64,000 bases of DNA from Adineta vaga (GCA_021613535.1 CP075492.1:14119769-14183768), one strand, 5' to 3'. Shown: positions 1 to 64,000, counted from the first letter of the stretch. The notes: generated by a model not told the origin, from the letters alone. Translations and numbers: made by a program.

Positions 1-21
1 TCTCCTCATCTTCATACCCTG

Positions 22-507
22 ATGATGAATAATTGCTGGAAGATTGACATAGATGAAACTTTTCTAACACAATCCTATCTACAATTGAACTCATTAACCT
101 TTAATGATTTACAAATGACTATGGATAAACTTGAATATTGTCTTGGGTTTTTACCATCGCTTATTCATCTGGATCTTACGAGTTCAGGTAAACCATTTGA
201 ATTCATTCAACGTTTATCGCAATGGGAAGAATTTCTTCGATTACGATTACCACGACTTAGTCAATTGGAAATTTGTATCTTTTGTTATTGTTGTGATTGG
301 AATCATTTCGATGCAATAATAAATGCATTTCGAACTCCATTCTGGCTTGAAGAGAAACAATGGTTTATTACGTGTCAATTTCGTGATGATTGGACATCTA
401 GTTTTACTTTCTTTACATCACCAGAATCATCATCAGTTCAATACACGAAAGAAAAACATCATTTTGATAGAATTGTATGTTCTAATTTACGAGATAAGAC
501 TTTATAA
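22..507 (+). CDS. F-box family protein, 3' part only (5' end cut by window edge)
   Basis: ORF in frame from the window start to TAA at 505-507. Its C-terminal region (…QWEEFLRLRLPRLSQLEICIF…FWLEEKQWFITCQF) is paralogous to the middle region of the F-box protein at 48669..50150 (…RWENLIRRHLPSLKYFHFKIH…FWSDQHQWFIHCDY). Confidence 0.45.
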   Translation: MMNNCWKIDIDETFLTQSYLQLNSLTFNDLQMTMDKLEYCLGFLPSLIHLDLTSSGKPFEFIQRLSQWEEFLRLRLPRLSQLEICIFCYCCDWNHFDAIINAFRTPFWLEEKQWFITCQFRDDWTSSFTFFTSPESSSVQYTKEKHHFDRIVCSNLRDKTL

Positions 508-566
508 GTTTATAAAATTATATTTTTACAACAAAAAAAGACAAAAAAATGACTGTGTTACAATTT

Positions 567-1199
567 TTATAAATCATAATATAATTTAAAATATTGATTC
601 AATAAAATACGTTGATAAGTATCTAGAAGTTTATCATAAACATGTTCACGTTCTTCAGGAGTTGCCATTTGAGGTTCATCGGTTGGTGCTTCAATAGTAT
701 CTGAAGAACTCAGTACATATGTCTTTTTTGCAGCTGTTTTACAGAGTTTTCTAGCAACGAATGTTAATACTTCATTGTGTTGTTGAGTTATTGGAGATAT
801 TGAATGAAATTGATTTGGTTCCACATGTAGTGTATTGCCCGGAAAATGGTCGTTAGTTTTTACCACGCGTAGAGCACCTGGTACACGAAAACTAGGATCA
901 AATTTATTACCCAAGGTTCTGGGAAATTGATATGTCATTGTGTCACTATGATCATCAATTATTTCCCACACATTCTCGATGTATTCGCCTTCCAAACAAT
1001 ATGTATCAAATGCATATCGATGATTATGGATATAAGTTTCAGAACAATCAAGAAACCAATGAAAACGATATTCGAAATTTGCATTAGTATTCTTTTCTGT
1101 ACAAATCACTTGATACATAACTCCCGGTAAAACACGAACAGTAACTGTTGACCAGTTCTGTAATACATAACATAAGTATCTCATGCTTTTTTCTTCCAT
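567..1199 (-). CDS. cupin-type thiol dioxygenase-like protein (ADO/PCO-like), 210 aa
   Basis: True ATG at 1199-1197 (cat on the plus strand). IHNHRYAFDTYCLEGEY resembles the cupin H-x-H…G motif of cysteamine and plant cysteine oxidases, and a later GNTLHV stretch looks like the third His region. The family call is tentative. Confidence 0.45.
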   Translation of the reverse strand: MEEKSMRYLCYVLQNWSTVTVRVLPGVMYQVICTEKNTNANFEYRFHWFLDCSETYIHNHRYAFDTYCLEGEYIENVWEIIDDHSDTMTYQFPRTLGNKFDPSFRVPGALRVVKTNDHFPGNTLHVEPNQFHSISPITQQHNEVLTFVARKLCKTAAKKTYVLSSSDTIEAPTDEPQMATPEEREHVYDKLLDTYQRILLNQYFKLYYDL

Positions 1200-2118: not shown

Positions 2119-4671
2119 ATGATATCTTTTGCTTGTATATTACTTATGTTGATAATTATGCTGTACGATTTACATAGTACGGTTACTTATTCAATGAGTA
2201 ATTTTGCATCAGAAAATTTAACTAAAATTAATCCTCGTTATGGAAGAGTCGACAATCCGAATGTTGCTCTCAAAGATGATTGTGCATTGCGAGCTTTTAC
2301 CATTGAAATGGCTGGTTATATAGCACCATCATTTTGGAAAAATAATTGGACGGCACTTAGTGAAAGTGCCTTTCAAATGAATGAATGTAATGGAACGAGT
2401 TATCATACCTCTAGATCGTCTAAAGCTCGGCAACCATTTCGAACGCCAGAAAGAATAAAAACAAATGTTTGTTATCGCTCGGTATTTGTAAATGGTGAAT
2501 CAGGTGATGATCGATCGAATGGAACATTCGAAAAGCCACTGAAAACGATACAAGCAGCTGTATCGTTGACACGAACTCTTCGCATTGCTTACGGTAGAAA
2601 CAATACAATGTGCATTATCCTGCGAGTAGGAACGTATTATTTGGGCACGAATGCTACTTCTTCATCGAGTAGTCAAATTGGTGCAATTGCATTAACAAGC
2701 GATGATAGTAATCTCGTGATTGAAAACTATCAAAATGAGCGTGTCGTAGTAAGCGGTGGTACTTTATTGCAATTACAATGGTCTGTTTATCAGAAAACAT
2801 CGACTGGTAGTACCATTATGAAAGCTCGAATACCAGCATATGTTGATCTCAATCAGTTTAATGAATTATATATCGATGGGAAAAGAGCTATTGTAGCTAA
2901 ATATCCTAATGGTGATCCTTCTACTCAAGGTCTGTATGCTAAAAACCCGGGATTTTGTTTCGAATGGCAAAAATGGTGGGGTCCTAGTTTCAATCGAACC
3001 GTAGAACTTCATGTACAAGAACCTTATCGCAATGGTACAGTATTCACAAACTTTCAACTTGGTATTGGTGGTGGTGCTTCTGTCTTTAATCCACCTACTA
3101 ATTTTTGGAGTACGGCTTCACCACCTGCAGGTGACAATTATGTCACGACTCGTGGTATTACTGTGAATAAAGACACATTGCCTCGTATAGCTAATTGGAC
3201 TAAACCAACGAATGGTATTGTACATACTTTTCAAGGAGAATATTGGGGTAGTTGGATATTTGAAATAGCATCGGTGAATAGCACTGAATATACGATTATG
3301 TTTGGTCGAGGAGGATTTCAAGAAGCGCGTGGTTTAAGTTGGGGTGGAGCATTCTATGTTGCGAATATATTCGAAGAACTCGATTCACCTAACGAATGGT
3401 TTCTAGACAAAGATACTCGTACTCTCTTTTTTATGCCCAATGAAACGATGCCAGAGACATTTATAGCCAGTCAAATTCCTTGTCTCATCTCTTTGCGTGG
3501 CAATAGTATTAATGATCCTATCCAGAATGTTTGGATACAAGGTTTGATCCTTTCAGAAACAACTAATACATATATGAGAGACTACATGGTACCGGGTGGT
3601 GGTGATTGGGCCGTTCATCGTGGTGGTACTATATATTTAACCAACACGAAAGATATTACTCTTGCACACAATTTATTTACACAATTAGGTAGCAATGGTG
3701 TCGCTTTAATTGATTATAATGATGGTACTTCTATTATTATGAATGAATTTGTCTGGTTGGCTGATTCAGCTATTATTCTTGTTGGTAGTACAAATGGAAT
3801 CGATGGTTTTAGTGTGGCTAGTCAACCTGCCAATACACTTATCCAATCAAATCTAATACATGAGACAGGCATCTATGTAAAACAATCATCTCCAATATTA
3901 ATTGCTGTAAGTAGAAGCGTGTCTATTATTGGTAATCTTATGTTCAATATACCGCGAGCAGCCATCAATATCAATGATGGCTTCTATGGTAATCATACAC
4001 TGAGTTGGAATGTGATGTTTAATACTGTACGAGAAACAAGTGATCATGGACCTATCAATACATGGGATCGTCAACCATTTTTGAGTGATGCTTCGCAATC
4101 TGGTATACCTTCACTATGGCAACATTACAGTTATATTCATCATAATACTATCTTCAATAATTATAATGCTTTATGGCCTATTGATCATGATGATGGCAGT
4201 TGTTTTTATGAAGATTCTTATAATTTTCATGTTTATGGTGGAAAGAAAAATTTTCTCGGTCACTCAAAATCAGATCATCATCAAATTTATGTCTATTCAG
4301 ATATGAATAAAGGTGATTATGGTAGTAATGTATGTCTAGGTTTTTATGCACCTAGACGAGGTTTTAGTGGTTGGGATGAAATTTGGGTTCAAAATACGTG
4401 CATACTTTACAAAATACCAATTCCTTACATTATCGGTAATTGTGAAACAACCGATCTATTTGTACCGTATTTAGCAAATAATAAAATATATATTCCAAAT
4501 GGTACTGAAGTGATATTTACATGTAATATTAATGGTACAAGTACAAAACTTAATTTAGAACAATGGCAATCATATGGAGTAGATATTGGTACTAGTATTT
4601 CTTCGACACCTGATGTTCAAACAATTATTGAATGGGGTCGTGAAATGTTGCAACCAACAACAACAGAGTAA
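2119..4671 (+). CDS. secreted right-handed parallel beta-helix (pectate-lyase-fold, PbH1-repeat) protein, 850 aa, single exon
   Basis: ATG at 2119 and TAA at 4669-4671. There is a hydrophobic N-terminus (MISFACILLMLIIMLY). PbH1-like repeats are present (NLFTQLGSNGVALIDYNDGTSIIMNEFVWLADSAIILVGSTNG; IHETGIYV…IIGNLMFN). Many N-x-S/T sites occur. It is a paralogous fold to the gene at 52964..54431. Confidence 0.75.
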   Translation: MISFACILLMLIIMLYDLHSTVTYSMSNFASENLTKINPRYGRVDNPNVALKDDCALRAFTIEMAGYIAPSFWKNNWTALSESAFQMNECNGTSYHTSRSSKARQPFRTPERIKTNVCYRSVFVNGESGDDRSNGTFEKPLKTIQAAVSLTRTLRIAYGRNNTMCIILRVGTYYLGTNATSSSSSQIGAIALTSDDSNLVIENYQNERVVVSGGTLLQLQWSVYQKTSTGSTIMKARIPAYVDLNQFNELYIDGKRAIVAKYPNGDPSTQGLYAKNPGFCFEWQKWWGPSFNRTVELHVQEPYRNGTVFTNFQLGIGGGASVFNPPTNFWSTASPPAGDNYVTTRGITVNKDTLPRIANWTKPTNGIVHTFQGEYWGSWIFEIASVNSTEYTIMFGRGGFQEARGLSWGGAFYVANIFEELDSPNEWFLDKDTRTLFFMPNETMPETFIASQIPCLISLRGNSINDPIQNVWIQGLILSETTNTYMRDYMVPGGGDWAVHRGGTIYLTNTKDITLAHNLFTQLGSNGVALIDYNDGTSIIMNEFVWLADSAIILVGSTNGIDGFSVASQPANTLIQSNLIHETGIYVKQSSPILIAVSRSVSIIGNLMFNIPRAAININDGFYGNHTLSWNVMFNTVRETSDHGPINTWDRQPFLSDASQSGIPSLWQHYSYIHHNTIFNNYNALWPIDHDDGSCFYEDSYNFHVYGGKKNFLGHSKSDHHQIYVYSDMNKGDYGSNVCLGFYAPRRGFSGWDEIWVQNTCILYKIPIPYIIGNCETTDLFVPYLANNKIYIPNGTEVIFTCNINGTSTKLNLEQWQSYGVDIGTSISSTPDVQTIIEWGREMLQPTTTE

Positions 4672-5301: not shown

Positions 5302-7103
5302 TTAAGACAAAGTAACAGAAACCATCCGACTTGCTACAGTTCCAGTTACTTTCAAACAAAATCGAATCGAATAACTTTGTCCGGTTGTTACGAAAAACGA
5401 CTGACTGATTTCATCAGCAACGTTTGCACACCAACTGTCTACACGGTAAGAACCAGTACGAGCTAAACCGCCCATAACTTGACTACCACTAGAGAATTGA
5501 CAAGCTCCATTTGGTATTGATCTTGTCCAACCAGGTGAGAAAGAGCCGTATTCAAAACCACCGTTGACTAATAATTCTGTAGTTCCATTAGTTACTGTTA
5601 CGTCATCTAAATACCAATGATCAATATTACTTCGAAATTGAAATACGAGGTTAACAGAGCCTGTAGTACTAGCTATCCATTCAGCATAACAACAAGTATA
5701 TGAAGTAAATGAAAATGTTGTTGAAGAAAATAAACTGGAAGATCCCACATTTATAGGAGTACCACATGGATTTGCAGTAGTAGTTGCTATTAAACAAGAA
5801 TGATGGAAAAATAAAGTAAAAGTTTTCAAAAAAAAATGACTAATTTACTCGCTATTTTACTAACTACAGAAAATAAACAATAGAAAGATTTTTAAGAAAA
5901 ACAATTCAATCATTTATCCGAATATTTACCAGAGTCTTTTTTTTCTACTGAATTTTGCTGTCTCTTTAATATTATCAGGTACTAAAATTGTTGACTTCAT
6001 TTTATCATAATGTAGATAATCTATGTTAGTCCTATATTTCTGGAATATGAATACGTAGAAATCATCATTATCACTAATTAAAAAGCTTCGACAACTAAGT
6101 TAAAATATGAACAGATGGGAAAGTGACATTTTCTCATGTAAATGTAAATAGATATCAACGACTTACATGTTGATGAAGTGCTGCTAGTCGATGATGATGT
6201 TGATGTGGAACTAGTAGTTGTTACGGATGCTATGAATTATAGAAATCTTCGGATGTAGATATATCAATTTGAAAAAGAAATATATACTTGTTGTTGTAGT
6301 AACAGTAGAAGTGGTCTCTGTTGTAGTAGTTGAAGTAGTTTCCGATGTGGTAGTAGATGTGCTCGTTGTTGTCGTGGTAGTTGCAGAGGTCGTGGTAGTC
6401 GTTGTTTCTGATGTAGTGCTTGTTGCTTTGTAATGATAAAAATAATAAATATAATTTTTTAGATGAAAATTTATAATTACTTGTGCTTGATGTAGTTGTC
6501 GTAACTGTTGTGATTGTCCTCTTGACAAAGAGACCTGCAAGTATACCAGCAAGACCAATGGCGAGTAATATAGCAATGATTATTGATGCAAGACAACAAT
6601 ATCGTGATCGAAGTCGACGGACTTTACGATTAAGATTAGGGTTCATATTTTCTTTCGTGCCTGTTTGGTTGAATCTGATGGTTTTAACTTTACTAAAACT
6701 TGATTTTGATCGCTTATGTTTGAGTCGTTTTGTTTTTCGTAATTGTTGTTCTTTAGACTGAGCACTACTATTGGAAAACGATTTTTGCGTGTTTGTCGAT
6801 GTTTTAGTTTCGCATATCGATCTGGATGGTATTGACAATGGAAGAGTCTGTAGAGGCAATATATAATGATTAATTGTAAACATTCATATTCAATAGTAAA
6901 ACAACTCCTACTTTGGATGAATCCATGAATTGATTAGAATTTCGTGGTAATATATTTGCATGAAAATCAAACTTCTTGTTCTGATATGATGATTGTAATC
7001 CAGAATTGATCGATGATGGTACAGATTGAGTTAGAAGAGGCGAAAATAACTTCACTCTATCTTGGCTCGATGGAAGTATTCGAGGCACTATACTTTCAAC
7101 CAT
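5302..7103 (-). CDS. multi-exon gene: single-pass TM protein with Thr/Ser-rich mucin-like stalk and C-terminal CBM4_9 (galactose-binding-like) domain
   Basis: Proposed exons on the minus strand: ~7103..6912 (ATG at 7103; donor AAA|GTAGGA), 6847..6481 (basic cytoplasmic tail KHKRSKSS, TM CCLASIIIAILLAIGLAGILAGLFV, donor CAA|GTAATT), 6425..6288 (TTSETTTTTTSATTTTTTSTSTTTSETT), 6229..6167 (all Ser/Thr codons, donor T|GTAAGT) and 5786..5302. All splice phases are consistent. Introns are 64, 55, 58 and ~380 bp. The terminal 'ORF' 5302..5829 has no ATG (the listed start is TTG) but carries the CBM_4_9 signature LLVNGGFEYGSFSPGW. Confidence 0.55.
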
Positions 7104-8176: not shown

Positions 8177-10735
8177 TTAAAAACGCGTGTGAATTGTCTC
8201 TCCATCTTGTGTTTTGAAATAATCAGGTGGTGAAGAATTGATCTCGATGTTCATTTTCTCATTGAATCTTGCGCCATTCATTGACATTCGAACATGCGGA
8301 TAAGCTGCTTGAGTTTGTTGTATTTCAGCCATTGCAATACCAAGAGAATCCTGTGGAATCCATACAATTGGTTTCGGTTCTCGTAATGCTGGATTCATAT
8401 ATGCATTTTCCATTGTATTATCATAAAAATCCACCACAGCATCATTCATATCAGAAACACTACTAATATCATCAGTCGATCGGCAATGCGTCAATACTTT
8501 TATTGCTGTTTTTGTTACGGGAAATCGGCTCGCATGAGGATTTTCCAATCGTACATATTCTTCAGCATCAACTGGTAAATAATACGTCAGTGGATCGAAA
8601 CTAGAACGCATTGTCATGTACACAATAACAGTCAATACAATCAATATGCACATGAGAATACCTTGAGGAATAGCGGCTTGTCTACCGGATTCATTTTGTA
8701 CTAGAAAAAATAATGCTGCAAGCATGATTTCCATTAAATAAACGCCAGTAAATGATTGATAAATAGCTCGCGGAAAAGCAAGACCACCAGAATCATTGGG
8801 AAAGTCGTTCACATAGAACATTGTATAAGTATAGGCAATATAATATAAAGCAAATGCAATACCAGATATGATGAGCATAAGAGGAGCAACAATCGAATAA
8901 ACTAAAGTAATGACAATAAAATTTGTAAAAACGGGAAATATTGTTCCCCAATCGAGACTTGAAAGTGTAAAATATCGTCGCCATTTTTTTCGTGGTGTAT
9001 TATCGAATAATTTTCCAAGAAGATAAAATGAAATCAATGTTACAACTTGTAATAAAACACCACAAGCAATACTTAATCCTTGTAAGGCAATAAAACTAAA
9101 GAAGAAATTACTTGCCGTTGGAATATTTGCAGCAAGTATTGTTGCAGCACTCGGCGGATTTTGAAAAATATCAACAATAACACTGGAAACACTACTAGAT
9201 ATAGTAACAAATAAGAAAACATGCGTGACTTGAAAAACAAAATAGGATCCTTGTACATAACGATCAATTGCATCCGTAGTAGGTTTGCCAGATAATTTCG
9301 CCAATAATTTCAATATGATCGGTAGTATTGACATTAAAATAGCTAATAGAACAGTTGGTAGAAGACCAGTAACTAGACCAAGAAGTGATGTTGGTAATTT
9401 ATAAATAACTTGAAGAAATGTTACTTTATCTGTAAGATACGTAATATTAGAGAGTATACCGACAAATGTAACAGGAATAGCCCAGAAGACGATAAGAGCG
9501 GCTGTTGCTGCTAACATAATAAGTTTTCTTAGTTTTTGTTCATAATAGCTTAATTTTAAATTTGACCAAACGATATTCAATGGTTTAATATCAATAAATC
9601 GAGGTGACATCGCTAAAGGAATGGACGCTGCTACACTTTGAACAGCCATATGAGCTGCTATTTGTGTATGAAATTGAATAAATGCTGAATTAATCGGTTT
9701 ATAATTGTTCAAACGTGTTTTTTCTGTTTCAATTTCTGTATTTAATTGTGAGATGGTCGTTTTACAGTATGTCAGAGCATCGACTTTCTTACCACAGCAG
9801 AGAGATGAAAGTATAGGAATTATTCCAATTCGCATTGTTGGTCGTTTGCTTTGTGGAATATAATGATCTATAATCTCTTCTTCATTAATCGTAAGAGTTT
9901 GTTCAGAATTGATCGTGTTTTTCTTTTTCTTCTGTTTAGCATCGTTTTTCAACGCTGTTTTAAGTAATTTACATTCAATTGCTTCGAGTTTTTCGACTAA
10001 TTTCATACGTTGAGCTACTTTATCAGGAAGATTTTCAAGATTTCGATTGAGCCATATATATTTTACTCCACCGGGAAATTGATTAAAAATTCGAAAGAGT
10101 ATATCGGTATCCAAATATACTTTTGGTATTGCAGTAACAAGAATCGTCGTTGCACTAGCACGAGATTGATATATCGAACTTCGTAATAATGCTTGACGTT
10201 TTTCTACAAAAACTTTCATTTCAATATAAAGAAGAAAGAGATATGCACCAAGAAAAACATATGCAAGTACCAATGGAGCTATGTATCGTAAAGAATGACG
10301 TGATGGTATATTACCAAATGTTAGAATATCGAGTCCTGTTTTTCCATATGCTTTACCTTTTCCATCAATTGTATAAATTGGAAATAGAATGATTGCTATA
10401 AGAACGAATGAACTTAGGAAGAAGATAGCATGAATGTAGAGATAACGTGCGAAGAAATAAGCATCAAGACCTGAAGTACGAATAAGATCTTCTTTTGGCA
10501 TCTTTAATAGAGCGGGTAACCAACCATAAGGTGTACGAGGCAAAGATTCCACACGTCGTTTTTCATCTCCTAAATATGTTTTTGGTTCATAGATACGTTT
10601 AAATATTGTTCTAATAGCAACGAATAAAACGACTTCAATTGCACCAATTGTAGCAGAAGCAATGAGTGTTGTAAAAAATTGTGAGAGTGAATAACCCTGC
10701 ATGCTTTGAATAGCTTTGGTTGTATTACTTGCCAT
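8177..10735 (-). CDS. CSC1/OSCA/TMEM63-family (DUF221) stress-gated calcium-permeable cation channel, ~852 aa, single exon
   Basis: The real ATG is at 10735-10733 (MASNTTKAIQ…); the ORF-track start at 10789 is TTG. The N-terminus matches the family (…FVAIRTIFKRIYEPKTY…) and the long multi-TM C-terminal half is typical of RSN1_7TM/PHM7. Confidence 0.8.
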   Translation of the reverse strand: MASNTTKAIQSMQGYSLSQFFTTLIASATIGAIEVVLFVAIRTIFKRIYEPKTYLGDEKRRVESLPRTPYGWLPALLKMPKEDLIRTSGLDAYFFARYLYIHAIFFLSSFVLIAIILFPIYTIDGKGKAYGKTGLDILTFGNIPSRHSLRYIAPLVLAYVFLGAYLFLLYIEMKVFVEKRQALLRSSIYQSRASATTILVTAIPKVYLDTDILFRIFNQFPGGVKYIWLNRNLENLPDKVAQRMKLVEKLEAIECKLLKTALKNDAKQKKKKNTINSEQTLTINEEEIIDHYIPQSKRPTMRIGIIPILSSLCCGKKVDALTYCKTTISQLNTEIETEKTRLNNYKPINSAFIQFHTQIAAHMAVQSVAASIPLAMSPRFIDIKPLNIVWSNLKLSYYEQKLRKLIMLAATAALIVFWAIPVTFVGILSNITYLTDKVTFLQVIYKLPTSLLGLVTGLLPTVLLAILMSILPIILKLLAKLSGKPTTDAIDRYVQGSYFVFQVTHVFLFVTISSSVSSVIVDIFQNPPSAATILAANIPTASNFFFSFIALQGLSIACGVLLQVVTLISFYLLGKLFDNTPRKKWRRYFTLSSLDWGTIFPVFTNFIVITLVYSIVAPLMLIISGIAFALYYIAYTYTMFYVNDFPNDSGGLAFPRAIYQSFTGVYLMEIMLAALFFLVQNESGRQAAIPQGILMCILIVLTVIVYMTMRSSFDPLTYYLPVDAEEYVRLENPHASRFPVTKTAIKVLTHCRSTDDISSVSDMNDAVVDFYDNTMENAYMNPALREPKPIVWIPQDSLGIAMAEIQQTQAAYPHVRMSMNGARFNEKMNIEINSSPPDYFKTQDGETIHTRF

Positions 10736-12476: not shown

Positions 12477-12488
12477 ACAATATAATAT

Positions 12489-13835: not shown

Positions 13836-13888
13836 GGTGAATGAGGGTCTTCTTATGATTTATACTCACACCCACACCTTCAGGTCCA
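13836..13888. repeat. short hairpin element, copy 2 (gaggatgtgggtgaatgagggtcttcttatgatttatactcacacccacaccttc)
   Basis: Inverted arms GATGTGGGTG / CACCCACACC with a ~30-nt loop. Related to the copies at 5049, 38691 and 54961. Confidence 0.4.
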
Positions 13889-38668: not shown

Positions 38669-38690
38669 CTAAATACATCATTATTTGAGG

Positions 38691-50695: not shown

Positions 50696-51076
50696 TTATC
50701 GTGGTAGGACAATAGTAGCTTTTGTATTAGCACCACCTGAGATTTGAATAGATGCACCAGTATAATAACTAGTATCTAATCCAACCGTTTGAATATTAAT
50801 TGAAATTTGACGACCGATGATAGCATCACAGTAATCATCTAATGTTAAATCAACTAATTTAGCATCACATTGAACAGGATAAGATTCACGACAAGTGCCC
50901 ATTTTCAATTCAAATTTATGTTCTGCACAGCCACCACTATATTGAAGATTAATATCGATGGTTTTTGTTTGTTTATTATAACGCGCATCTTTAATAAAAG
51001 GCATATATTCTGCATTTATTATTGAAAAACAGAGCAGAAAAACAGTCACGACACTTTTTTGTAATTGATAAGCCAT
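50696..51076 (-). CDS. small secreted Cys-containing protein, ~126 aa, unknown family
   Basis: The real ATG is at 51076 (MAYQLQKSVVTVFLLCFSIINA signal-peptide-like); the ORF-track start at 51088 is TTG. Confidence 0.4.
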   Translation of the reverse strand: MAYQLQKSVVTVFLLCFSIINAEYMPFIKDARYNKQTKTIDINLQYSGGCAEHKFELKMGTCRESYPVQCDAKLVDLTLDDYCDAIIGRQISINIQTVGLDTSYYTGASIQISGGANTKATIVLPR

Positions 51077-51583: not shown

Positions 51584-52511
51584 ATGTTAAATACAACAAA
51601 GGATTCATTATTTATGGCTTATTATCCATTAACTCTAGTCATTGTTGGTACTATATTAAATCTTTTAACATTCATTGTACTTTGTCGACCAATATTTCGT
51701 GATACAATAAAAAGACAACCTGTTATTCATTATATGCGTACAATAGCAATCTTTGATATTCTGATGGTATATAGATGGAATCTTGATCATTATCTTTCAG
51801 AATTGTTCATGGTTATATTCTTTTAACATATTCAATAGCGTCATGTAAGATTTTTGGTTTTATGAATTATTTTGCATGTCAATCATCAGCTTGGCTTCGA
51901 GTATTCATTTGTTTGGATCGATATTTATCTGCTAATCGTCTTCATCGAACATGGTTTAGCCGTCAAAAAAATGTTTTAATCATCATTATTTCAGTGATTA
52001 CAATTATAATTTTATTTAATTTTCATTTCTTTATATTTACATGTTACTATAGATCTAATGGTACTATCAATCCTAATGCTCAATTATATCAGGTTTATCC
52101 ACTTTGGGATTATATTAATCTCAGTGTATACCATTTATTCTTATGGTTACATTTAATAGTGGTGTAATTTATCATTTATTTCATCGTAAACAATCACAGA
52201 TGATTCAACATTCACGTATACCTTATCAAACAATCTCAATAACATTGTTAATTACAACATTTCTCTTTTTAATTATGACAATTCCAGCAACGATTGTGGT
52301 AGCATTCTTTTTCACAATACCAACATCTACATTAGCTAAAATATTAGGTTCGATACTTTATACATATCATATAATATCCTTTTCACTTTATTTTCGTACA
52401 TTTAAAGAATTTCGTCAAGAATGTATCATGATGATTACATGTAGAAAAAATCATCATCGAATTAGACCAATTTTGACAACGATTCGTGCAGAAAAAATGC
52501 TCAATAAATGA
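51584..52511 (+). pseudogene. GPCR paralog (same family as 11511 and 12489) split over three frames; probable pseudogene
   Basis: ATG at 51584. TM3 SIASCKIFGFMNYFACQSSAWLRVFICLDRYLSANRL (DRY), TM5 CIPFILMVTFNSGVIYHLFHRK and TM7 ISFSLYFRTFKEFRQE are present. The frame switch at ~51795 has no phase-compatible GT-AG, so it is a true frameshift. The second switch at ~52120 could be a 32-bp GT..AG interval (52093..52124), but that is shorter than every other intron in the window. Confidence 0.55.
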
Positions 52512-52963
52512 ACGGTTGAATATACGCCTTCGGTCTATTTCTTGTCCAATATATAAATAAAAATATTTACGTGAATAAGCATGACTTCTCTCCATTTAAT
52601 TAAAGGAGGAAATCTTAAAAAAATCTGTTCTTCATGTTATTATTTGCGAAAAAGTGTTGGAATAAAGAAAAGCATATTGTACATACGTAGAACGTTAGTA
52701 ATAAAAAAAACACAAATCTTATTCGTTTGAAGAAATAAAAGTGACATGACTATTTACTTTTACTTTAATTCACAACTACAAGTAAGTGATATTTAAAGGT
52801 TTGATACATTGATGTGATACTATTCAGTATAACTAAGTTTTATGATGATTTTACATATGCAATTGATTTGTTTCGTCAATGTTCTACTCTGGATTCAAAT
52901 AAGTATGTGTCAGACACTATATGTATGTTCTTAGATGAAACCTTTTCTATGTTTATCACATAG

Positions 52964-54431
52964 CAGCAGGCAAGTCTTATTATGTAACAAAATCTGGTAA
53001 GGATAGTAATGCGGGAACGACTGAAGCAACTGCTTGGTTTACCATACAAAAGGCAGCAAATTCAGCAACACCTGGTTCGACTGTTTATATTGGTGCTGGC
53101 ATTTATTATGAAGCAGTCACAGTAAACGTGCAAGGCAATGCAATAGACGGTCCGATTACTTTCACTAATTTAACACCAAATAAAATACCTGTTATTTCTG
53201 GCAAACAAACGACTATTGCATCTCCTGATGGAACTTTAAATGTAATTTATATTCAAGATAAGAGCTACTTACGTTTTATCAATCTTGAATTAACAGAATT
53301 AAAAGCAGTTGAATGTAGTGGAGTAAGAATTGTGGGCAGTGGAACCAATATTGGTGAGTTTTTTTTTAAAATTTTGATTTCTCTGATAGAAATCGATATT
53401 CTATTCTACCCTTGTAGAACTACGAAATTTACACATTTATAATATCCGTGGTGGAGATGAAAGTGGTGGTGCAATGGGAATTACTGTCTATAATAATAAT
53501 CAAAAAACAAGTCGTCGTCAACTGATCATTGACAATTGTACACTTCATGATTGTGATCCAGCATGGAGTGAAGCATTGACATTGAATGGCAATATTGAAC
53601 AATTTCAAGTGACGAATAATCGAGTATACAATATGAACAATATTGGAATTGATTTTATTGGTAAGTGTAGTTTCATGCATCATCAGAGATATTTTGATTC
53701 CCTTTTCGAATAGCTGGCGAAAATTGGTTAAGCGGTTTAGGAACTCGATCAGGTCTATGTGCTAATAACACTGTCTGGAATATTCATTCAGTTTATGACT
53801 CTAGTGCAGCTGGCATCTACGTTGACGGCGCTTCCAATATAACTTTAGAAGGAAATGAAGTTCATCATTCAGATATGGGAATAGAAGTAGGTGCCGAAAA
53901 TAAAGGACAAGTAGCAACAAAAATGCTTGTTCGAAGTAATTATCTTCATCATAATGATAAATTTGGATTAGCCTTTGGAGGATACGATTCTCAGTAAGTC
54001 ATCCAAACATTCTTTTGCAAAATAAAACGAATATATTGATGATTTATAGACGAGGTCGGGTTACAAATAGTTTATTCATATCTAATCGACTTGAACAAAA
54101 CGATATGATGCATACAGGTGGTGGAGAAATATCTATTTCATTTGCTTCTGACAATACAGTTCTTCGCAATATCGTGAAGCCAAATGATCAAAATATCATT
54201 CTTCTTGCAAATCAAGATGGTGGTTTAAATAATCAATTCGATTATCAAATATATTATCCAAATGGACAAGGTGCAACACAAGAAAAACTTATTTTCTATT
54301 GGGGAAACACAGAGTGTGATGGTTTACGTGCATTTCAACAAAATAGCAAACAAGAAATGCATGCTCAAACCAATGCAGTGAAACGTGCCTTCGGAATAAA
54401 AGGTTTTTTTCCACGAAAGTTTTATTTCTAA
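52964..54431 (+). CDS. secreted right-handed beta-helix (DUF1565 / pectate-lyase-fold) protein, four mapped exons; 5' signal exon not resolved
   Basis: Exons ~52964..53353, 53418..53660, 53714..53993 and 54050..54431. Introns are 64, 53 and 56 bp with donors GTGAGT, GTAAGT and GTAAGT. The phases 1/1/2 are all consistent. The N-terminal domain SYYVTKSGKDSNAGTTEATAWFTIQKAANSATPGSTVYIGAGIYYEAVTV is typical of bacterial-type beta-helix proteins. A candidate ATG at 52746 is followed by the donor CAA|GTAAGT, but its phase does not fit. Confidence 0.7.
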
Positions 54432-54960: not shown

Positions 54961-55010
54961 TATGTAGTGGGTGTGGGTGTATAACTTCTTCTCTTACCCA
55001 CACCCTCAAA
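54961..55010. repeat. hairpin (GTGGGTGTGGGTG … CACCCACACCC) at the junction between the beta-helix gene and its truncated copy; element copy 3
   Basis: agtgggtgtgggtgtataacttcttctcttacccacaccctc. The arms are (TGTGGG)2-like and the loop contains CTTCTT, as in the other copies. Confidence 0.45.
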
Positions 55011-55680
55011 GTGACGAATAATCGAGTATAGAATATAAATAATATTGGAATTGATTTCATTGGTAGGTTCTGGACCGTTTCTTTAGTTTAAACTTAACTA
55101 TCTTTTTTTTTATTCGCTGGAGAAAGTTGAGCCGGTGGTTTAGGAACTCGACCTGGCTGATGTGGTAATAATACTGTTTGGAATATTCATTCAGTTTATG
55201 ACTCTAGTCCAGCTGGCATCTACATTGATGGGGCTTCCCGATATGACTTTAGAAGGCAATGAAGTTCGTCATTGAGATACGGGAATAGAATTAGGTGCAG
55301 AGAATAAAGGACAAAAAGCAATCCAACTGACTCTCAGATATAATTATGTTCATCGTAATGATAAATTTGGATTGGCTTTTGAAGGATATGATTCTAAGTA
55401 AATGAATAGATTTTTGTATGATAATGAAAATGATAATTTGATTTCGTAGACTCAGCCAAGTCATCAATCGTTTATTTGCCGATAATCGTCTTGAAGAAAA
55501 CGATGGTAATCATGCAATTGGTTTAAAAAATACATTTGATTATCAAGTGTATTATTCAAATGGACAAGGTGCAACACAAGCAGATCTTATATTCTCATGG
55601 GGAAACACTGAATATAATGGATTGAGTGCTTTTCAAAAGAAAACTAAACAAGAATCGCAAGCTCAAATTATTTCTGGTTA
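54990..55680 (+). pseudogene. truncated tandem duplicate of exons 3-5 of the beta-helix gene, with an in-frame stop
   Basis: It starts in mid exon 3 (…GTGACGAATAATCGAGTATAGAATATAAATAATATTGGAATTGATTTCATTGGTAGG), keeps the intron positions, and carries CGTCATTGAGATACGG where the parent has CATCATTCAGATATGG (a stop). Its 3' end is diverged. Confidence 0.7.
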
Positions 55681-55753
55681 GAAGATATTTTTCGACAACA
55701 GAAATGACACATTTTAAACTCTTTTATAGTTCTCGAAATTTTTCCAAAAGTAT

Positions 55754-57604
55754 TTATCCATCAAATACATAGCTAAATCGACCATCCGGAGCAGTGTCTC
55801 CATTCTGAATAAGACTGAGAATATCACCATCGCGTATCATATTGTCTATCCATTTGAAATTAAACTTAACGGGAGTAGTACTATTGAATCCGAGCAATGT
55901 TCGCGGAACCGCGAATTGTAATTCATTACCGATCGTAACAAAAGGAATTTGTGAAACAAATTGCCAAATCCAACCAGATTGACTTCTTTCAATAGAAGTG
56001 AGAGAACCATTGAGATGTCGATTAATAACAATATCGAATCCTTCCCATCCTGTTGTAAAATTTTGATCAATATCAATGAATAGCAGCATCCAATTGGAGC
56101 TATTGCTCGGATTTGTTAATGATCGATTAGTTCGAGCATAGAAATAAACGTTATTGATGTCTCTCGCCACTTTTGCAAGTACAATATCGTTTCGACCTGT
56201 ATCATCTGTGTATCGAATATTAGTATTATAACCGATCTCGTCACGATGTTCTATATCATTGATATGATCCATAAATGAAGGTCCAACATTGTCCCATTGT
56301 TTAAAATCTGATCCAATGGTAATGGTAACGGGTGCAGTAGGCGTTGGGACCATTCGAGTACCTTTGTAATGACGAATATTAGTTACCAATTGATAGTAAT
56401 ATGCATCCTGGTAATAATTTCCTTAGAAAATAGCATGCATCGTGTATAAAACAAATATAAATTAACTGTTTCAACTCATACCTTCTGGAAATCCTCCACT
56501 GATTCCACCAGCACAAGGTTCAATATCACGACTATGTTCCCAATCAAATTCATCTACAAACATGACTGGAAGTTTGATACTAGCAAATTCAGATAGACGT
56601 AAAGCAATCCATTCATTCCAACCAGTGACGAAAACGAATTCGGGATCAACTTGTAAAGCACGTTCCCATTGTTCTTGTATATTGAGTCCATACGGTGTTG
56701 ATGTTTTTCCAGATGGAATCGTATTATTATGAAAACTACGTCCTCGAGCACCGACTTCACTCATTGATCCAATACGATTACCAACTGCATTTTGTCCTAC
56801 ACCAACAGTCATTTGTTCAGCTACGTTCGCACTATTTTTAAATATATGTTGCGGATATACTTCTAACCAACCCCATTGGTTTACGTCAGTTGGACCAATG
56901 AAATAACTAGGTTGAGGAGTTCTAAATGTAAAAAAATTCAAGATATCTGGACGTGATGGAAAAAATTGTGGATTAGTGAGAATCAATGGTTTTCCTTCCC
57001 ACATAAACCATAGTTCTGGATGATAATTGATTTTATAGATGTTATCGAAAAGAGTTTGTACTGTTTGAAAAGGTGCTCCAAAAGGTGTAAGAAATGCGAC
57101 TTGAGGCGTCGATCCACCTAATGCACGAACATCGGAAAATGCTTGACATAAAGCTTGAAAAGATTCTAGATAAACACGATCATTTGTTACATCGAAGAAA
57201 ATAACATCTACACCAGCATTAGAAAGCATTCTAGCATGTCGTCGAATAACCCATTGATCTGTTGAACGATAATAACCAAAATAAGCTTCACCCCAATGAT
57301 GATAATGATTCATTGGTCCCCACGCTGAATTATTTGGCTCTAACATTGCATTCGGATTAGCCGTTAGAATTTTGCTTATATCAAACGGTCCATCGGTTGT
57401 TTCAAATCCAAGCCAAAGAAAATAAAACACACCAACAAATCGATCTGTTCGTGGTGATCGCACTGTTTTAGGTAAAGAACGACCAAGACCATCTGTTGCC
57501 GTCCATGTATCACTCATCAAATCCAATGAAGAAACAATTCCATTCCATGTTAATAAGAGACAGAGAAGTGAAGAAAATAAGGATAGATTGACATGTAACA
57601 TCAT
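55754..57604 (-). CDS. secreted TIM-barrel glycoside-hydrolase-like protein (GH99/GH71-like pattern) with a C-terminal beta-sandwich domain, two exons
   Basis: Exons 57604..56482 and 56421..55754 with a 60-bp intron (G|GTATGAG…tttctaag|GA, phase 1 consistent). ATG at 57604 (MMLHVNLSLFSSLLCLLLTWNG signal; the track start at 57652 is GTG). VGVFYFLWLGFETTDG…NHYHHWGEAYFGYYRSTDQWVIRRHARMLSNAGVDVIFFDVTN matches the hxFYxxWxG…G.Y.S.D..VI..H…aGvDVi pattern of GH99-type enzymes. The family call is tentative. Confidence 0.65.
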
Positions 57605-59081: not shown

Positions 59082-60058
59082 TTATCCACTTTGTGTCGTA
59101 TTTGTTTGCCAAACAATTGACTTAGTTTTATCAGTCCATATTAGATTTCCTGAATCTAATATTTCGAAACAGAAAGGAGTTCCACTACCATTATTATAAA
59201 TCGCAGCTGTCCATAGTACTTGCATAGTACCCAATGCATAAACAACTAAATTACGATCATACTGTAATGCAAGAAAACATGAAATTGATGTTGATATTTG
59301 ATTTGCAGTCCAGAGTGTTGTTGAAGTAACATTTCCATAGCTGTAAGCACTATAAACACCGAATTGATTATTTAACATACCGACTGCATAAGTTTGTGAA
59401 GTTGGTGAATAGATAAATTCATCATTATAAAAGTATATACTGTTATTATATACGCAAACGGACGACGGAGGAGCTACAACATAGAAAAAAACGAAAAATG
59501 ATCAGTAGTCATTTACATAATTCATCTACATTTCTCAAACCTGTCGTAGTTGTTGCAGTTGTTGTGCTTGTAGCTAGAAAACAAATGAGAAAGAATTTCT
59601 ACTTTAATATACTCAATCATCCTTCTTTTACTTGCAGTAGTACTTTTCGTTGTCGTGCTAGTGAAATTTATAGTAGTAGAAGTCATTACTATAAAGAAAA
59701 AAGGACACATGTATTATTTTCTTCGGAGTAGCTTACAGTTGATTGATGCCGTAGTTGAATCTGTTCCTGTTGACAAGAAATTAGAAAATATACATTCATT
59801 AATTTTATCTGATTCTCTGAATTAAACTTTTTGCTTACCTGATCTTTGCCATAAAACAACAACAACAGCCAAAACATTTCCTGCTACTAATAAACCCAAA
59901 ACTAATCCAATTACAAACATTGTTTTTGCTGAAGTAGTTGATTGTTTCGTTGTTGATTGTATTGTAGTAGAATCATGATCAACACTATCTACTTCAGACA
60001 ACCCATGAGTACTAGCATCCAAGGTTTGTAATTCATAGCCATTTTCTAACGTATTCAT
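59082..60058 (-). CDS. multi-exon gene: N-terminal TM anchor, Thr-rich mucin-like stalk and C-terminal bulb-type (B_lectin) mannose-binding lectin domain
   Basis: ATG at 60058. Exon 1 runs to ~59839 with donor G|GTAAGC and contains the TM FVIGLVLGLLVAGNVLAVVVVL. Short exons follow, with Thr-rich stretches (TSTTINFTSTTTKSTTA, TTSTTTATTTT) and ~55-60-bp introns. The terminal exon ends at 59082 (…NLVVYALGTMQVLWTAAIYNNGSGTPFCFEILDSGNLIWTDKTKSIVWQTNT…), the B_lectin signature. Internal exon boundaries are approximate. Confidence 0.55.
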
Positions 60059-60702: not shown

Positions 60703-62238
60703 CTAATAGTTTTCTGCACGTTTTTTACTGTTGTTTAACCATTGTTGAAGATCATCTAAATTTCTTGGTTCAAAACGACATTTAAACATTTTCGGTTGAA
60801 CAACGAGTGCTGTAGGTCGTGTATTGACTTCCATACCATCTAAAATTGCTGCGTATTCTTTATTCAATGGTTCAAGAATTCGAAAACCAACGATAAGACG
60901 AATAAAAAATGTAAATAATTCTCGATTTGCTAAATGAGCACCAATACACATTCTTGTTCCAGCACCATAAGCATAGTGAGGTGTGCCATCAGCATCACCA
61001 AGATAACGATCTGGATTAAAAGTATATGGATCTTCAAAATGATTTTCATCATAATCACCAGCAAATGCATTCATATAAAATGAAGTACCAGCAGGAATTC
61101 GTGCACCTTCATATTCAATCTCTTGAATACTGCGACGAGGAAGACTCATATGATGAACAGTATAAAAACGAAGAATTTCTTTATATAAAGCAGTTACATA
61201 TGGAACACGTTCCTCGTCTATACATCGATCCCATGCATCACCATCGGGATAAACATCGAGAATTTCTCTATAGGCACGTTCTTGAATATCTTGACCATGT
61301 GGTGAAGAAAGATAACCAATACCAAGAATAATATTTGTTGGAACTGTTTCAAGAGCAGCACTAATCATTGTCAAGCAAATACTTCGAATTTCTGTTTCAT
61401 TCAATTTTGCAGATGGATCTTTGAGAATATTACCGGTAATACATGGTTTATCTACTCCATTAGCAATATCTTTTTTTAAACCCTCTAATAATTGTCCGAG
61501 ATAACGATCACGACGAAGACGAATCGTCGCAGCTTCATTCGATCGGGCTGGAAATAAACGTAGAAGAGGAACATAATCTTGCCAATTATTTGATGCTGAT
61601 CGCAGTTGTGCAACAGCTCCTTCGACTATCACAATTTCTTTGAGAAGTTCATCAGATGATGAACCAATACGTGTACCATAATTCAATGTTAACGATGTAT
61701 TTAAAGCAAATCGTTGAAGATGAGGAATAATATTAATATCTGCTTGACCATTTTGACATTCATGTAGTATTTCATTAATAGCGACATAGGATTCGAGATC
61801 AATAATGGGCATATAGGATTGAACAGCTGGTTTATTCAGTGCTGTTGCTGCTGCTTTACGACGTTGTTTACATGATTCATCCCAAGGTGAAGTACCGATC
61901 GATAATACTTGACTACTTACAACATTGTGAAATGTATGTAATGTAGGTCGACTGATTAATGCTGCTTGATTTTTAACCCAAAAATATTTGATTGAATCAT
62001 AAGAATTAGCAATGACGATACGTTTGTTTCCCATACGAATTTGAAAAACAGGACCCAGTTTTTTCGCAAGTTTTGAAAGAGATTTTGAATGATTGTCACC
62101 CAATAGAAATAGACTTCCAAATATAGGCCAACCAGATGCTTCGGGAAGTCCATGAATCTTAGGAATTTCGGTTGTATCGAATATTTTGATGAGAAGTAAA
62201 AGAATAACGATGACACCAAATAAAACAAGAATCATCAT
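60703..62238 (-). CDS. cytochrome P450 monooxygenase, single exon, ~511 aa
   Basis: The real ATG is at 62238 (MMILVLFGVIVILLLLIKIF membrane anchor); the track start at 62283 is TTG. Heme loop YGAGTRMCIGAHLANREL (FxxGxRxCxG). PERF-like DPYTFNPDRY. ExxR-like EILRFYT. Confidence 0.8.
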   Translation of the reverse strand: MMILVLFGVIVILLLLIKIFDTTEIPKIHGLPEASGWPIFGSLFLLGDNHSKSLSKLAKKLGPVFQIRMGNKRIVIANSYDSIKYFWVKNQAALISRPTLHTFHNVVSSQVLSIGTSPWDESCKQRRKAAATALNKPAVQSYMPIIDLESYVAINEILHECQNGQADINIIPHLQRFALNTSLTLNYGTRIGSSSDELLKEIVIVEGAVAQLRSASNNWQDYVPLLRLFPARSNEAATIRLRRDRYLGQLLEGLKKDIANGVDKPCITGNILKDPSAKLNETEIRSICLTMISAALETVPTNIILGIGYLSSPHGQDIQERAYREILDVYPDGDAWDRCIDEERVPYVTALYKEILRFYTVHHMSLPRRSIQEIEYEGARIPAGTSFYMNAFAGDYDENHFEDPYTFNPDRYLGDADGTPHYAYGAGTRMCIGAHLANRELFTFFIRLIVGFRILEPLNKEYAAILDGMEVNTRPTALVVQPKMFKCRFEPRNLDDLQQWLNNSKKRAENY

Positions 62239-62879
62239 GTAATAAAAAAAAGAAGAAGAAACGTAATAGTGATGCAGTTGCAATCGTGTTGAATATATAT
62301 GAGATTTATTTTTTCATTCTATACTCTTTATAATACTGATAACACATTTTATCTCTTCATCTTTTTCACACAATGTGTTTCGTTACTTTGTCATATAGAC
62401 GTTATAATAGGCGTATCTGATTTTTTGTACGCTGATCTGTTATATCTAATTGTGTGCAAGTGATATTATCGATTGCGTAATTGATAAAAAGGAAGCTAAA
62501 ACAAACAGTAAGAGAATTCTGATTACATTAATATGCCAATCAAATAGTTGATGTAATCACTTTTTGGTCCGCGAAACAAGAAACAAGCCATATTGTACGA
62601 TAATAGTTAGCATAAACTAATAAAAAAAATATTTTCTGTAAATAATAAATCATTTCGAAAATCTTATGATATATTAATTCACATATGATGAAGTTTTATT
62701 TTCTTAGCAGTAGTTCTCAATTGGTACTTATTGTTTCAGAAAATACGTCAAGTTCATGATAGAGATTGTCGCTTATTTCATTTACTTCCAATCTAGATTT
62801 CAAACATATCAAACTGGAGAAAAATGAGAAAATCGTTCGCTATTACAAAAAAGAATGGTATTGAAATGAATGGATAAGA

Positions 62880-63300
62880 AATATCTTACAATGTTGTCAA
62901 CCTACGACGATGATGATGATGTGACGATTATTCATAAAAGAAACAAACAAACTGAAACAATATCACTATGGGAGGCATTGATCTGGCCGACCAACAGATA
63001 ACACCTTACAGTGTTCCTCGAAAACGGTTGAAAAAATATTACAAAAAATATTTATGATTTTATCAGATTTAGCTATACTGAACTCTTATAATTTATGTAA
63101 AATACAGACTCTTCAAACAAATCATACTGTGATGACACAACTTCAACCTACACTAATCCATTTGATTGGATGTCATTTTCCGTCTACAATTCTCCCTAAC
63201 TCAAATACAAAACGTTCAAGAAGACGATGTTTTGTTTGCAGTCATACAAAATCCCAAAGCAATCGAAGACGACGTGAAACAACATACATGAATCTTCAAT
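62880..63300 (+). mobile_element. piggyBac-type transposase C-terminal relic (frameshifted)
   Basis: …MGGIDLADQQITPYSVPRKRLKKYYKK (the conserved MGGVDxxDQ…KKWYKK block). After a frame switch comes IFMILSDLAILNSYNL… and then KRSRRRCFVCSHTKSQSNRRRRETTYMC, resembling the Cys-rich C-terminus. No upstream DDE region remains. Confidence 0.45.
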
Positions 63301-64000
63301 TTTTAGTGTTCAGCTTTGTATTGATCTATGTTTTCGCATTTATCATACTGTACTGAATTTTTAAACAAAACATTCTATTTTGAAAAAATTTACTGAAAGA
63401 AATATTTTGCTATTTCTTGTTCAAAAGTAACATCTGTCTCATACACATATATATATATATCAACAAAAGGTTCATTACTCTTAAAGACCCATAAATTTGT
63501 AAAATTTTAGGAAAAAAGAATTTTTAGTTAGTGAAAAAACTTAACAGTCAAGATGGTTAAAGACTTATCACCAGTTCCATTTTTTTCCCGTGAAATATCA
63601 TGTCAAAAACGCGTTAACTATAGTGCCACCAATATAGTGGAACTGGCTTTTATCAGAAAAAAGTATAGTTTGAATAAAGAATTATTTTATGATATTTCTG
63701 TGATATTTTTTTCAGTCTTTCGTAGTAAATTTCAGATGTCGCCACGCGTTTTCAGTTGTTAGTGATTGGCATTTCTATTTTACTGTTTTTCATCAGATTA
63801 ACGTACTAATGAGATATTTCTACTATGTTTTCTGTAATCGAATCTATTGGACAAGCTATCCGTCCAATTATTTTTTTTGTTTTCTTGTCGCTCACATTCT
63901 ATATACATGCCATGTGCCAAACGTAAGAACGCCATTTTCTCTTCACACACGATTACGATCGTACACATAAGCAGTTTACATAACATATTTACTAACTATA

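Follow-up and report, generated by a model that had tools for sequence, protein, structure and literature searches.

A probable mosaic of domesticated foreign genes and native genes in a window of Adineta vaga chromosome 3, most likely several megabases from the chromosome end

The DNA considered here, a stretch of 64,000 nucleotides from the bdelloid rotifer Adineta vaga (called the window, with positions counted from its first letter), is very probably a mosaic on chromosome 3 in which domesticated foreign genes, native genes, and the products of decay and repair lie together, most likely several megabases from the chromosome end. Native, intron-rich animal genes would make up one component; these encode a TRPM channel, a PARP4-like protein, rhodopsin-type G protein-coupled receptors (GPCRs), and a clan-2-type cytochrome P450, and a bdelloid-specific F-box-like family would stand beside them. 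Bacterial and fungal genes would have been taken up and domesticated, taking on a host-like base composition and, in several cases, gaining rotifer introns of 50 to 70 nt. Decay and repair would then have overlaid both components, leaving a piggyBac relic, a truncated copy of a beta-helix gene, a deletion across the C45 and Erg28 genes, a satellite, and three patches of telomere-type repeats.

The overall pattern is one that is already known for bdelloids, and so the finding is not new; in A. vaga, short introns are established, as are TGTGGG telomeres, a foreign share of about 8% of the genes, and subtelomeres rich in horizontally transferred genes and transposable elements (TEs). What the window illustrates is that a bdelloid genome can be recognized from sequence alone by tool-free reading. 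The present check adds a gene-by-gene correction of such a reading, and it suggests that content of a subtelomeric kind may also be found far from the ends of a chromosome.

That reading, a preliminary description of the window, had guessed at a bdelloid rotifer, and the guess was right. Ten of the window's proteins have exact counterparts among those deposited for A. vaga AV20, a chromosome-scale assembly that was published with annotation (Simion et al. 2021, PMC8494291). Their locus tags run from I4U23_015377 to 015397, and all ten come from one record of 20,354,754 bp. Five identities were obtained by exact lookup of the translations of intronless open reading frames (ORFs), namely, UJR11199 (I4U23_015380), UJR11201 (015382), UJR11209 (015390), UJR11210 (015391), and UJR11216 (015397), and five further ones through gene models built here, namely, UJR11208 (015389), UJR11213 (015394), UJR11215 (015396), UJR11211 (015392), and UJR11196 (015377). 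The record can be recognized as chromosome 3 because the window size given for that chromosome in PMC13564844, 81,419 bp, multiplied by 250 yields 20,354,750 bp, in effect the size of the record; the lengths obtained for chromosomes 1 and 2 are 18.15 and 16.27 Mb. The FUN_ gene identifiers in the supplements of PMC10809525 showed no correspondence to the I4U23 numbers, as evidenced by FUN_015380, which is an NAD(P)H-binding gene and not CSC1.

Gene models came from a dynamic-programming gene finder, run region by region, for which the window itself supplied the training data of the codon and splice models. About 21 models cover ~57% of the window, a gene density at or above the genome average. 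Since the finder reproduced the deposited TRPM protein (19 introns), the glycoside hydrolase (GH)-like protein (1 intron), and a lectin-domain protein (4 introns) residue for residue, the 24 introns of these genes can be regarded as validated. They bear out the short, AT-rich introns of the preliminary description: 19 of the 24 measure 53 to 69 nt (range, 48 to 82; median, 59.5; mean, 60.0), and their A+T content averages 0.74, against 0.67 in coding sequence and in the whole window. The full set of 64 predicted introns gives the same picture of length and A+T. A Pfam scan of every ORF outside the satellite, taken from stop to stop and no shorter than 55 codons, recovered the domains that had been named for the genes: beta-helix, RSN1/CSC1, three 7tm_1, ART, PARP/VIT/VWA/BRCT, Questin_oxidase, TRPM, Pentapeptide, and P450. 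A tRNA scan and an Rfam scan of the window gave no match.

Foreign-like genes and their native neighbors

At least eight genes had been credited with bacterial or fungal affinities. Seven of these affinities are supported, and for three genes (those encoding the GH-like protein, the 451-residue beta-helix protein, and the C39-like peptidase) sequence comparison supports them strongly. The P450 drops out, and a pentapeptide-repeat protein is counted neither way. The seven supported genes are as follows.

2119..4671, + strand: right-handed beta-helix protein of 850 aa, intronless, with weak GH141_M and DUF1565 matches
14368..15285, + strand: ADP-ribosyltransferase (ART), an ORF of 305 aa (Pfam ART, E 1.2e-10)
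36667..37931, + strand: questin-oxidase-like gene (PF14027, E 7e-70)
39220..40255, + strand: C39-like peptidase of 300 aa with 2 introns (64 and 69 nt) and bacterial, Bacteroidota-type relatives
52842..54431, + strand: beta-helix protein of 451 aa (Pfam Beta_helix) with 4 predicted introns (61, 64, 53, and 56 nt)
55754..57604, - strand: GH99-like protein of 596 aa, I4U23_015394, with 1 validated intron (60 nt), identical to UJR11213.1
58107..58774, + strand: remnant of a C45-family Ntn-hydrolase (NCBIfam C45_proenzyme, NF040521), previously called a conjugated bile acid hydrolase (CBAH)

Candidates for horizontal gene transfer (HGTc) make up 8.3% of genes genome-wide (PMC8494291). Against that figure, 7 to 8 foreign-like genes among ~22 to 26 represent an enrichment (P ~1e-3 to 1e-4). 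They are interleaved with the TRPM, PARP4-like, and GPCR genes on the same contig.

The GH99-like gene was searched against 5.8 billion proteins. Its closest named relatives outside Adineta, taken after the hits that are named Adineta or share 74% identity or more with it, belong to Actinopolymorpha and Actinomadura (55 to 56% identity, coverage up to 95%, E ~1e-220) and to the Armatimonadota, and no metazoan name occurs among the best 120 matches. The query is the sole A. vaga sequence among the matches listed. Some homologues carry a GH99 domain; the protein itself had no sequence match in the PDB and none on bacterial plasmids. The preliminary description had called the gene only possibly foreign, and the comparison supports a foreign-like gene of bacterial, actinomycete type.

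Both beta-helix proteins show a bacterial affinity, one of the two kinds (bacterial or fungal) that had been proposed. The 451-residue protein aligns with Bacillus plasmid genes over 96 to 100% of its length in a single piece (33 to 35% identity, E 6e-61), and its four predicted introns are supported because this alignment is colinear. Three tandem orthologues are found in Adineta ricciae. The 850-residue protein matches a Phocaeicola plasmid (29.7% identity, E 3e-43) and 29 other bacterial plasmids by tblastn. For the C39-like peptidase, too, the proposed affinity is upheld: residues 7 to 296 align at 37% identity (E 3e-64) with a metagenome protein that carries a type IX secretion system (T9SS) sorting domain (PF18962), the alignment runs unbroken across both predicted exon junctions, a second match also carries PF13529, and A. 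ricciae has an orthologue in synteny. In all, the GH99-like gene has one intron, the C39-like gene two, and the 451-residue beta-helix gene four.

The questin-oxidase-like gene, described as fungal or bacterial in affinity, matches the structures of AflY, the questin oxidase BTG13, and PaD (E 1e-23 to 2e-20), presumably all fungal proteins, and a Legionella plasmid gene (33% identity, E 6e-28). Its reading frame shifts near a T-run at ~37.59 kb (37480-37640), where no short intron candidate fits and the interruption is either an intron of 125 nt, which would be atypical, or a frameshift; the gene could be a pseudogene or could contain an assembly indel. The ART likewise has bacterial relatives, with 34% identity to Nonomuraea and Streptomyces proteins (E 2e-22). 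In the PDB and NCBIfam, it is matched best by Vis, HopU1, XopAI, and a protein with PAAR repeats (6dre); we take 6dre to be Tre1 and all four to be bacterial effectors.

The supposed CBAH gene has a bacterial affinity and loses its name. CBAH itself, choloylglycine hydrolase (PF02275), was rejected, with no Pfam match at E<=1 and no relevant PDB match to the solved bile salt hydrolase and penicillin V acylase (BSH/PVA) structures; the C45 family matches instead, through NF040521 (E 2.6e-8, below the cut-off) and C45 peptidases on Persicobacter and Aureispira plasmids. The gene is a truncated remnant, and what is left of it matches portions of an A. ricciae gene of 591 aa. Comparison with that species shows that A. 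vaga has undergone a deletion of ~1.6 kb (58107-58910; A. ricciae contig L003, 6859-9534), which removed the 3' part of the C45 gene and most of Erg28, and the two remnants now lie 40 bp apart.

Two other genes of the window had been listed as foreign or possibly so.

46114..48330, - strand: pentapeptide-repeat membrane protein of 738 aa, I4U23_015390, intronless, identical to UJR11209.1 (Pfam and NCBIfam Pentapeptide)
60703..62238, - strand: cytochrome P450 of 511 aa, I4U23_015397, intronless, identical to UJR11216.1

The P450 looks metazoan-like. Its top PDB matches are the vertebrate enzymes CYP1A1, CYP1A2, CYP21, and CYP17 (E 1e-29 to 1e-24), followed by cinnamate 4-hydroxylase, ferruginol synthase, and sugiol synthase, which we take to be plant enzymes; among the 60 PDB matches listed, we recognize none as bacterial or fungal. 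An A. ricciae orthologue has 82% nucleotide identity. The suggestion that this gene is foreign is thus not borne out. The domain of the pentapeptide protein is confirmed, and the gene may or may not be foreign: the family is typical of bacteria, yet the bacterial plasmid matches do not exceed 23 to 26% identity.

Some points weigh against the foreign component of the mosaic. For every gene except the GH99-like one, foreign affinity means that bacterial or fungal relatives exist (in tblastn searches of plasmids, in the PDB, or in NCBIfam), and metazoan relatives may exist as well. When ten of the best relatives of the pentapeptide protein were looked up, one proved to be from Adineta steineri, and the others lie on short contigs or on metagenome contigs. 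Two long metagenome contigs were traced, one of which bears a gene pair resembling that of a long terminal repeat (LTR) retrotransposon.

The neighbors with which these genes are interleaved had been described as conserved metazoan genes. That holds for the TRPM, PARP4-like, and GPCR genes and fails for two others, a CSC1 channel, which is plant- or fungal-like, and an F-box protein, which has bdelloid relatives only.

40868..45728, - strand: TRPM channel of 1241 aa, I4U23_015389, with 19 introns and LSDAT_euk and TRPM2 domains, identical to UJR11208.1
28546..35678, - strand: PARP4-like gene, a predicted model with at least 17 short introns and BRCT, PARP_reg, PARP, VIT, and VWA domains
11511..12476, + strand: rhodopsin-type GPCR of 321 aa, intronless (7tm_1, E 2.5e-12)
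12489..13520, - strand: rhodopsin-type GPCR of 343 aa, I4U23_015382, intronless, identical to UJR11201.1 (7tm_1)
51584..52511, + strand: rhodopsin-type GPCR, a predicted model with 2 predicted introns (7tm_1) and an A. ricciae orthologue
8177..10735, - strand: CSC1/OSCA-type channel of 852 aa, I4U23_015380, intronless, identical to UJR11199.1 (RSN1_TM, PHM7_cyt, RSN1_7TM, PHM7_ext)
48669..50150, - strand: F-box-like protein of 493 aa, I4U23_015391, identical to UJR11210.1
1..507, + strand: incomplete gene of the F-box-like family, whose 3' part alone falls inside the window, with 27% identity (E 2e-7) to the protein at 48672-50150

To judge by its matches, the TRPM gene is clearly of metazoan type; the top PDB entries are TRPM2-like and TRPM channels, and the first of them, 6co7, is presumably a Nematostella channel. 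At the 3' end of the PARP4-like model (28546-30447) lies a fragment of an Hsp70 substrate-binding domain (PF00012, E 1e-27). PARP4-like genes of A. vaga that are induced by radiation, have an Hsp70 domain, and find their best matches in metazoans are described in the supplements of PMC10809525.

A metazoan TMEM63 channel was considered for the CSC1 gene and rejected: the gene is intronless, PHM7_ext is present, and all 16 PDB matches at E<=1e-5 are named OSCA, CSC1, ERD4, or HYP1, and none TMEM63. The proteins behind these structures are presumably from plants. The gene had no bacterial plasmid match, and it may be a further acquisition of fungal type that was absent from the list of foreign genes in the preliminary description. 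The F-box-like family appears to be restricted to bdelloids, as suggested by the named matches among 22, which are all from Adineta or Rotaria and include no second A. vaga protein that shares sequence words with this one; the F-box match in Pfam is weak (E 0.042).

From 39 to 62 kb, the window is largely syntenic with two contigs of A. ricciae. The pentapeptide gene, between the F-box-like and TRPM genes, occurs in A. vaga only and is absent at the syntenic A. ricciae locus, while two extra beta-helix copies occur in A. ricciae only. A BTB/BACK gene between the TRPM and C39-like genes is likewise seen in A. ricciae only (contig L005, 11609-13087). On the evidence of shared gene order, at least three foreign-like genes, the GH99-like, beta-helix, and C39-like genes, would predate the split between A. 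vaga and A. ricciae.

Telomere-type patches and the truncated beta-helix copy

Patches of TGTGGG type had also been reported in the window, and this claim stands in part. The single TGTGGG hexamer occurs about as often as chance predicts (11 observed, with 7.9 +/- 2.7 expected), whereas two-unit telomere motifs are enriched ~70-fold (5 observed against 0.07 expected) and cluster at three loci. These patches, and a gene copy that abuts one of them, are as follows.

13832..13879, no strand assigned: patch A, TGTGGGTGAATGAGGGT, a 16-nt spacer, and CTCACACCCACACCT, head-to-head, between the starts of a GPCR gene and the ART gene
38686..38703, + strand: patch B, TGAGGGTGTGGGTGTGGC, ~520 bp upstream of the C39-like start codon
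54966..55008, no strand assigned: patch C, AGTGGGTGTGGGTGTA, a 13-nt spacer, and TACCCACACCCTCA, head-to-head, abutting the truncated beta-helix copy
55009..55681, + strand: 5'-truncated beta-helix duplicate (pseudogene), positional orthologue of the A. ricciae copy beside the GH-like gene (contig L003, 12112-12633)

In patches A and C, the G-rich arm comes first and the C-rich arm follows 13 to 16 nt later, giving the palindromic form GGGTGTGGG...CCCACACCC. The gene copy beside patch C is a partial duplicate of the 451-residue beta-helix gene: 55009-55401 and 55519-55667 correspond to 53607-53997 and 54221-54369, at 80% identity. Homology in this copy begins at the first base after the C-rich arm of patch C. 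At the syntenic locus of A. ricciae, the GH-like gene is accompanied by a tandem array of three beta-helix genes, all intact, and there is no telomere-type patch.

Telomeric repeats have been reported at deletion breakpoints in A. vaga, and transient neotelomeres that leave scars have been proposed (Sci Adv 2026, PMC13564844). An analogous course of events can be envisaged for patch C. A break or deletion inside the beta-helix array would have produced two ends that were both briefly capped by telomerase, and the re-joining of these capped ends would have left one intact copy, patch C, and a 5'-truncated copy. Patch C is consistent with such a healed-break scar, in which case telomerase would presumably have taken part, and we read all three patches as putative scars of this kind. 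We extend this only tentatively to the window as a whole, as an internal pocket of chromosome 3 where head-to-head telomere scars may mark double-strand breaks that were capped by telomerase and fused again, one of them at the beta-helix truncation. The likeness to the neotelomeres of PMC13564844 lies in TGTGGG repeats at breakpoints, since patch C marks the junction left by a deletion or truncation within an array of tandem genes. The difference is that those neotelomeres come from experimental lines and read-level data, whereas patch C would be a fixed head-to-head remnant of 2 to 3 units in a reference assembly.

Several features of the patches speak against reading them as scars: they are just 2 to 3 units long, patches B and C have a 15-mer in common (TTTGAGGGTGTGGGT), and the two arms of patch A share the flanking bases CTGA(G/A)G. 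Because of the shared 15-mer and the shared flanking bases, a small palindromic element stays a rival source. More broadly, the patches may not be products of telomerase at all and may instead be chance G-rich words, remnants of palindromic elements of the kind of miniature inverted-repeat transposable elements (MITEs), or cis-regulatory palindromes that resemble CACCC boxes. We consider this rather doubtful. It would account for the two kinds of sharing just described, for the lack of enrichment of the single hexamer, and for the positions of patch A in a divergent promoter region and of patch B upstream of the C39-like gene; in addition, one GGGTGTGGG, at 58807, which had been entertained as a telomere scar, was rejected as ancestral Erg28 coding sequence. 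What counts against it is the ~70-fold excess of two-unit matches, the identity of the repeat unit with the exact bdelloid telomere hexamer (PMC8494291), and the coincidence of patch C, to the base, with the point at which the duplicated gene is truncated. Moreover, no such telomere motif is found at the syntenic A. ricciae loci, including the ~570 bp upstream of the C39-like orthologue, and the patches are therefore not conserved promoter elements.

Whatever its origin, patch C is one clean case of a head-to-head telomere repeat at a gene-truncation junction and a possible marker of past break repair. If the scar reading is true, patch C would be a natural record, at base-pair resolution, of the route through break, neotelomere, and re-joining that has been proposed for A. 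vaga, and it would hint that repair shapes foreign-gene pockets away from chromosome ends.

Position along chromosome 3

Gladyshev, Meselson, and Arkhipova reportedly described bdelloid telomeric and subtelomeric regions as rich in foreign genes in 2008, and a subtelomeric setting is what the preliminary description had proposed for the window. Its content does fit published bdelloid telomeric and subtelomeric DNA; its physical location there is made doubtful by locus-tag arithmetic, gene density, and synteny. With a total of 31,000 to 35,000 genes, tags 015377 to 015397 would fall 9.9 to 15.6 Mb from the start of chromosome 3 (20.35 Mb), leaving 4.7 Mb or more to the nearer end. Accordingly, we regard an internal position as probable, as a conclusion from numbering and not from mapping. 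Two points tell against it: the calculation assumes that I4U23 tags run from chromosome 1 to chromosome 6 at approximately even gene density, and subset-sum arithmetic shows that some other orders of the chromosomes would place the window near one end of chromosome 3.

Should the window lie in a bdelloid subtelomere after all, its foreign genes, TEs, repeats, and telomeric stretches would have accumulated by repeated terminal breakage, healing, and addition. We judge this unlikely. Its appeal comes from the content: foreign genes, tandem repeats, and short telomeric stretches are all present, as in the list drawn up from bdelloid telomeric fosmids, which comprises tandem repeats, TEs, ORFs for repetitive and foreign proteins, and short telomeric stretches (PMC2861651), and in AV20 the subtelomeres are enriched in HGTc as well as in TEs (PMC8494291). 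The non-natural chromosome orders just mentioned would also allow it. Against it stand the natural chromosome order, which puts the tags ~10 to 16 Mb into the chromosome, and the synteny with A. ricciae from 39 to 62 kb. The high TE content and low gene density of subtelomeres are not seen either; ~57% of the window is taken up by gene models, and one TE relic of ~0.46 kb is confirmed. The window contains no (TGTGGG)n array of more than 3 units, and the Pfam scan found no reverse-transcriptase ORF. Finally, the chromosome arms, too, carry many HGTc along their length, as noted by Simion et al. (2021, PMC8494291).

Compared with the known foreign-rich telomeres and subtelomeres of bdelloids (PMC2861651, PMC8494291), the window is thus similar in its intron-bearing bacterial and fungal genes beside metazoan genes, its ORFs for repetitive proteins, its tandem repeats, its decayed DNA transposon (piggyBac), and its short (TGTGGG)n stretches. 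It is dissimilar in being gene-dense, partly syntenic with A. ricciae, and several megabases from an end by tag arithmetic, and in lacking Athena, Penelope-like, or other retroelements and a long telomeric array. A second comparison is with the internal HGTc hotspots of AV20, two of which are visible, on the homoeologous chromosomes 1 and 4, one of them with interstitial telomeric repeats (PMC8494291). Like these, the window combines dense foreign genes off the chromosome ends with interstitial telomere-type repeats and some foreign genes that are old, here those in common with A. ricciae; unlike them, it lies on chromosome 3.

The remaining alternative, that contamination or chimeric assembly produced the bacterial- and fungal-like genes, draws on the bacterial identity of their closest nonrotifer relatives and is hardly credible, being effectively refuted already by their rotifer-type spliceosomal introns, their GC content of 31 to 39%, which is like that of neighboring native genes (actinomycete genomes are far more GC-rich), the TRPM, PARP4, and GPCR genes that flank them on the same contig, and same-order orthologues in the independent A. 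ricciae assembly.

Repeats, transposon relics, and remaining genes

The large satellite reported for the window was confirmed, and so was its piggyBac relic, which scores above the Pfam cut-off. A hAT relic was not: the only Pfam match in its three ORFs is to zf-BED at E 0.19, and there is no PDB match. The repeats and relics, including one weak relic that overlaps patch B, are as follows.

19598..25048, + strand: C-depleted satellite of 59 units of 93 bp (Tandem Repeats Finder [TRF], 58.6 copies, 94% matches)
25682..25739, - strand: isolated, inverted partial satellite unit, ~650 bp past the array (81% complementarity over 58 nt and 100% over a 32-nt core)
27201..28202, - strand: three broken ORFs with a putative BED-finger-like motif by our own reading
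38359..38771, - strand: weak CAP/SCP-domain relic overlapping patch B (PF00188, E 0.0097, below the cut-off)
62834..63290, + strand: decayed C-terminus of a piggyBac transposase with stops and frameshifts (PF13843 DDE_Tnp_1_7, frame-corrected translation)

Each satellite unit has a head of 66 nt, which is conserved, and a tail of 27 nt, which varies. Within the array, a block of ~16 units recurs, which indicates that the array grew by segmental duplication. The + strand has 1.7% C and a GC skew of ~0.92. Long ORFs on the minus strand were considered as coding sequence and rejected as a by-product of composition, since the + strand is nearly without C. The satellite core had no exact match in the metagenome contigs of the Joint Genome Institute (JGI). 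In the piggyBac relic, a translation that changes frame twice and reads through one stop codon matches PF13843 at profile positions 263-349 of 349 (87 positions), with an E value of 7.4e-9 and 35.8 bits against a cut-off of 22.4.

The remaining gene models are these.

567..1199, - strand: protein of 210 aa, I4U23_015377, identical to UJR11196.1, with no recognizable domain (no Pfam match)
5302..6646, - strand: Thr-rich membrane protein, a gene model without an exact deposited match (NCBIfam NTTRR-F1, E 2.5e-5; mucin-like match)
50696..51076, - strand: protein of 126 aa with a hydrophobic N-terminus, I4U23_015392, identical to UJR11211.1 and conserved in A. ricciae
59082..60058, - strand: Thr-rich membrane protein with a bulb-type lectin domain, I4U23_015396, with 4 introns, identical to UJR11215.1 (B_lectin, E 3.6e-4)

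In the Thr-rich protein at 5302-6646, the C-terminal domain weakly resembles the bacterial NTTRR-F1 domain and may be of foreign origin. Between the PARP4-like and questin-oxidase-like genes, an ORF at 35966-36349 (+) with weak matches to phospholipase A2 (E 0.012) and CBM_5_12 (E 8e-4) may be a gene fragment. The ~4 kb between the ART gene and the satellite (15300-19500) are without a convincing ORF or domain. At 26700-26900, a GC-rich palindromic element flanks runs of A and T; its arms are GGGGCGTCCCGAG and CTCGGGACGCCCC, and with an internal repeated GCCCCCCCTGCTT it is conspicuous amid AT-rich DNA.

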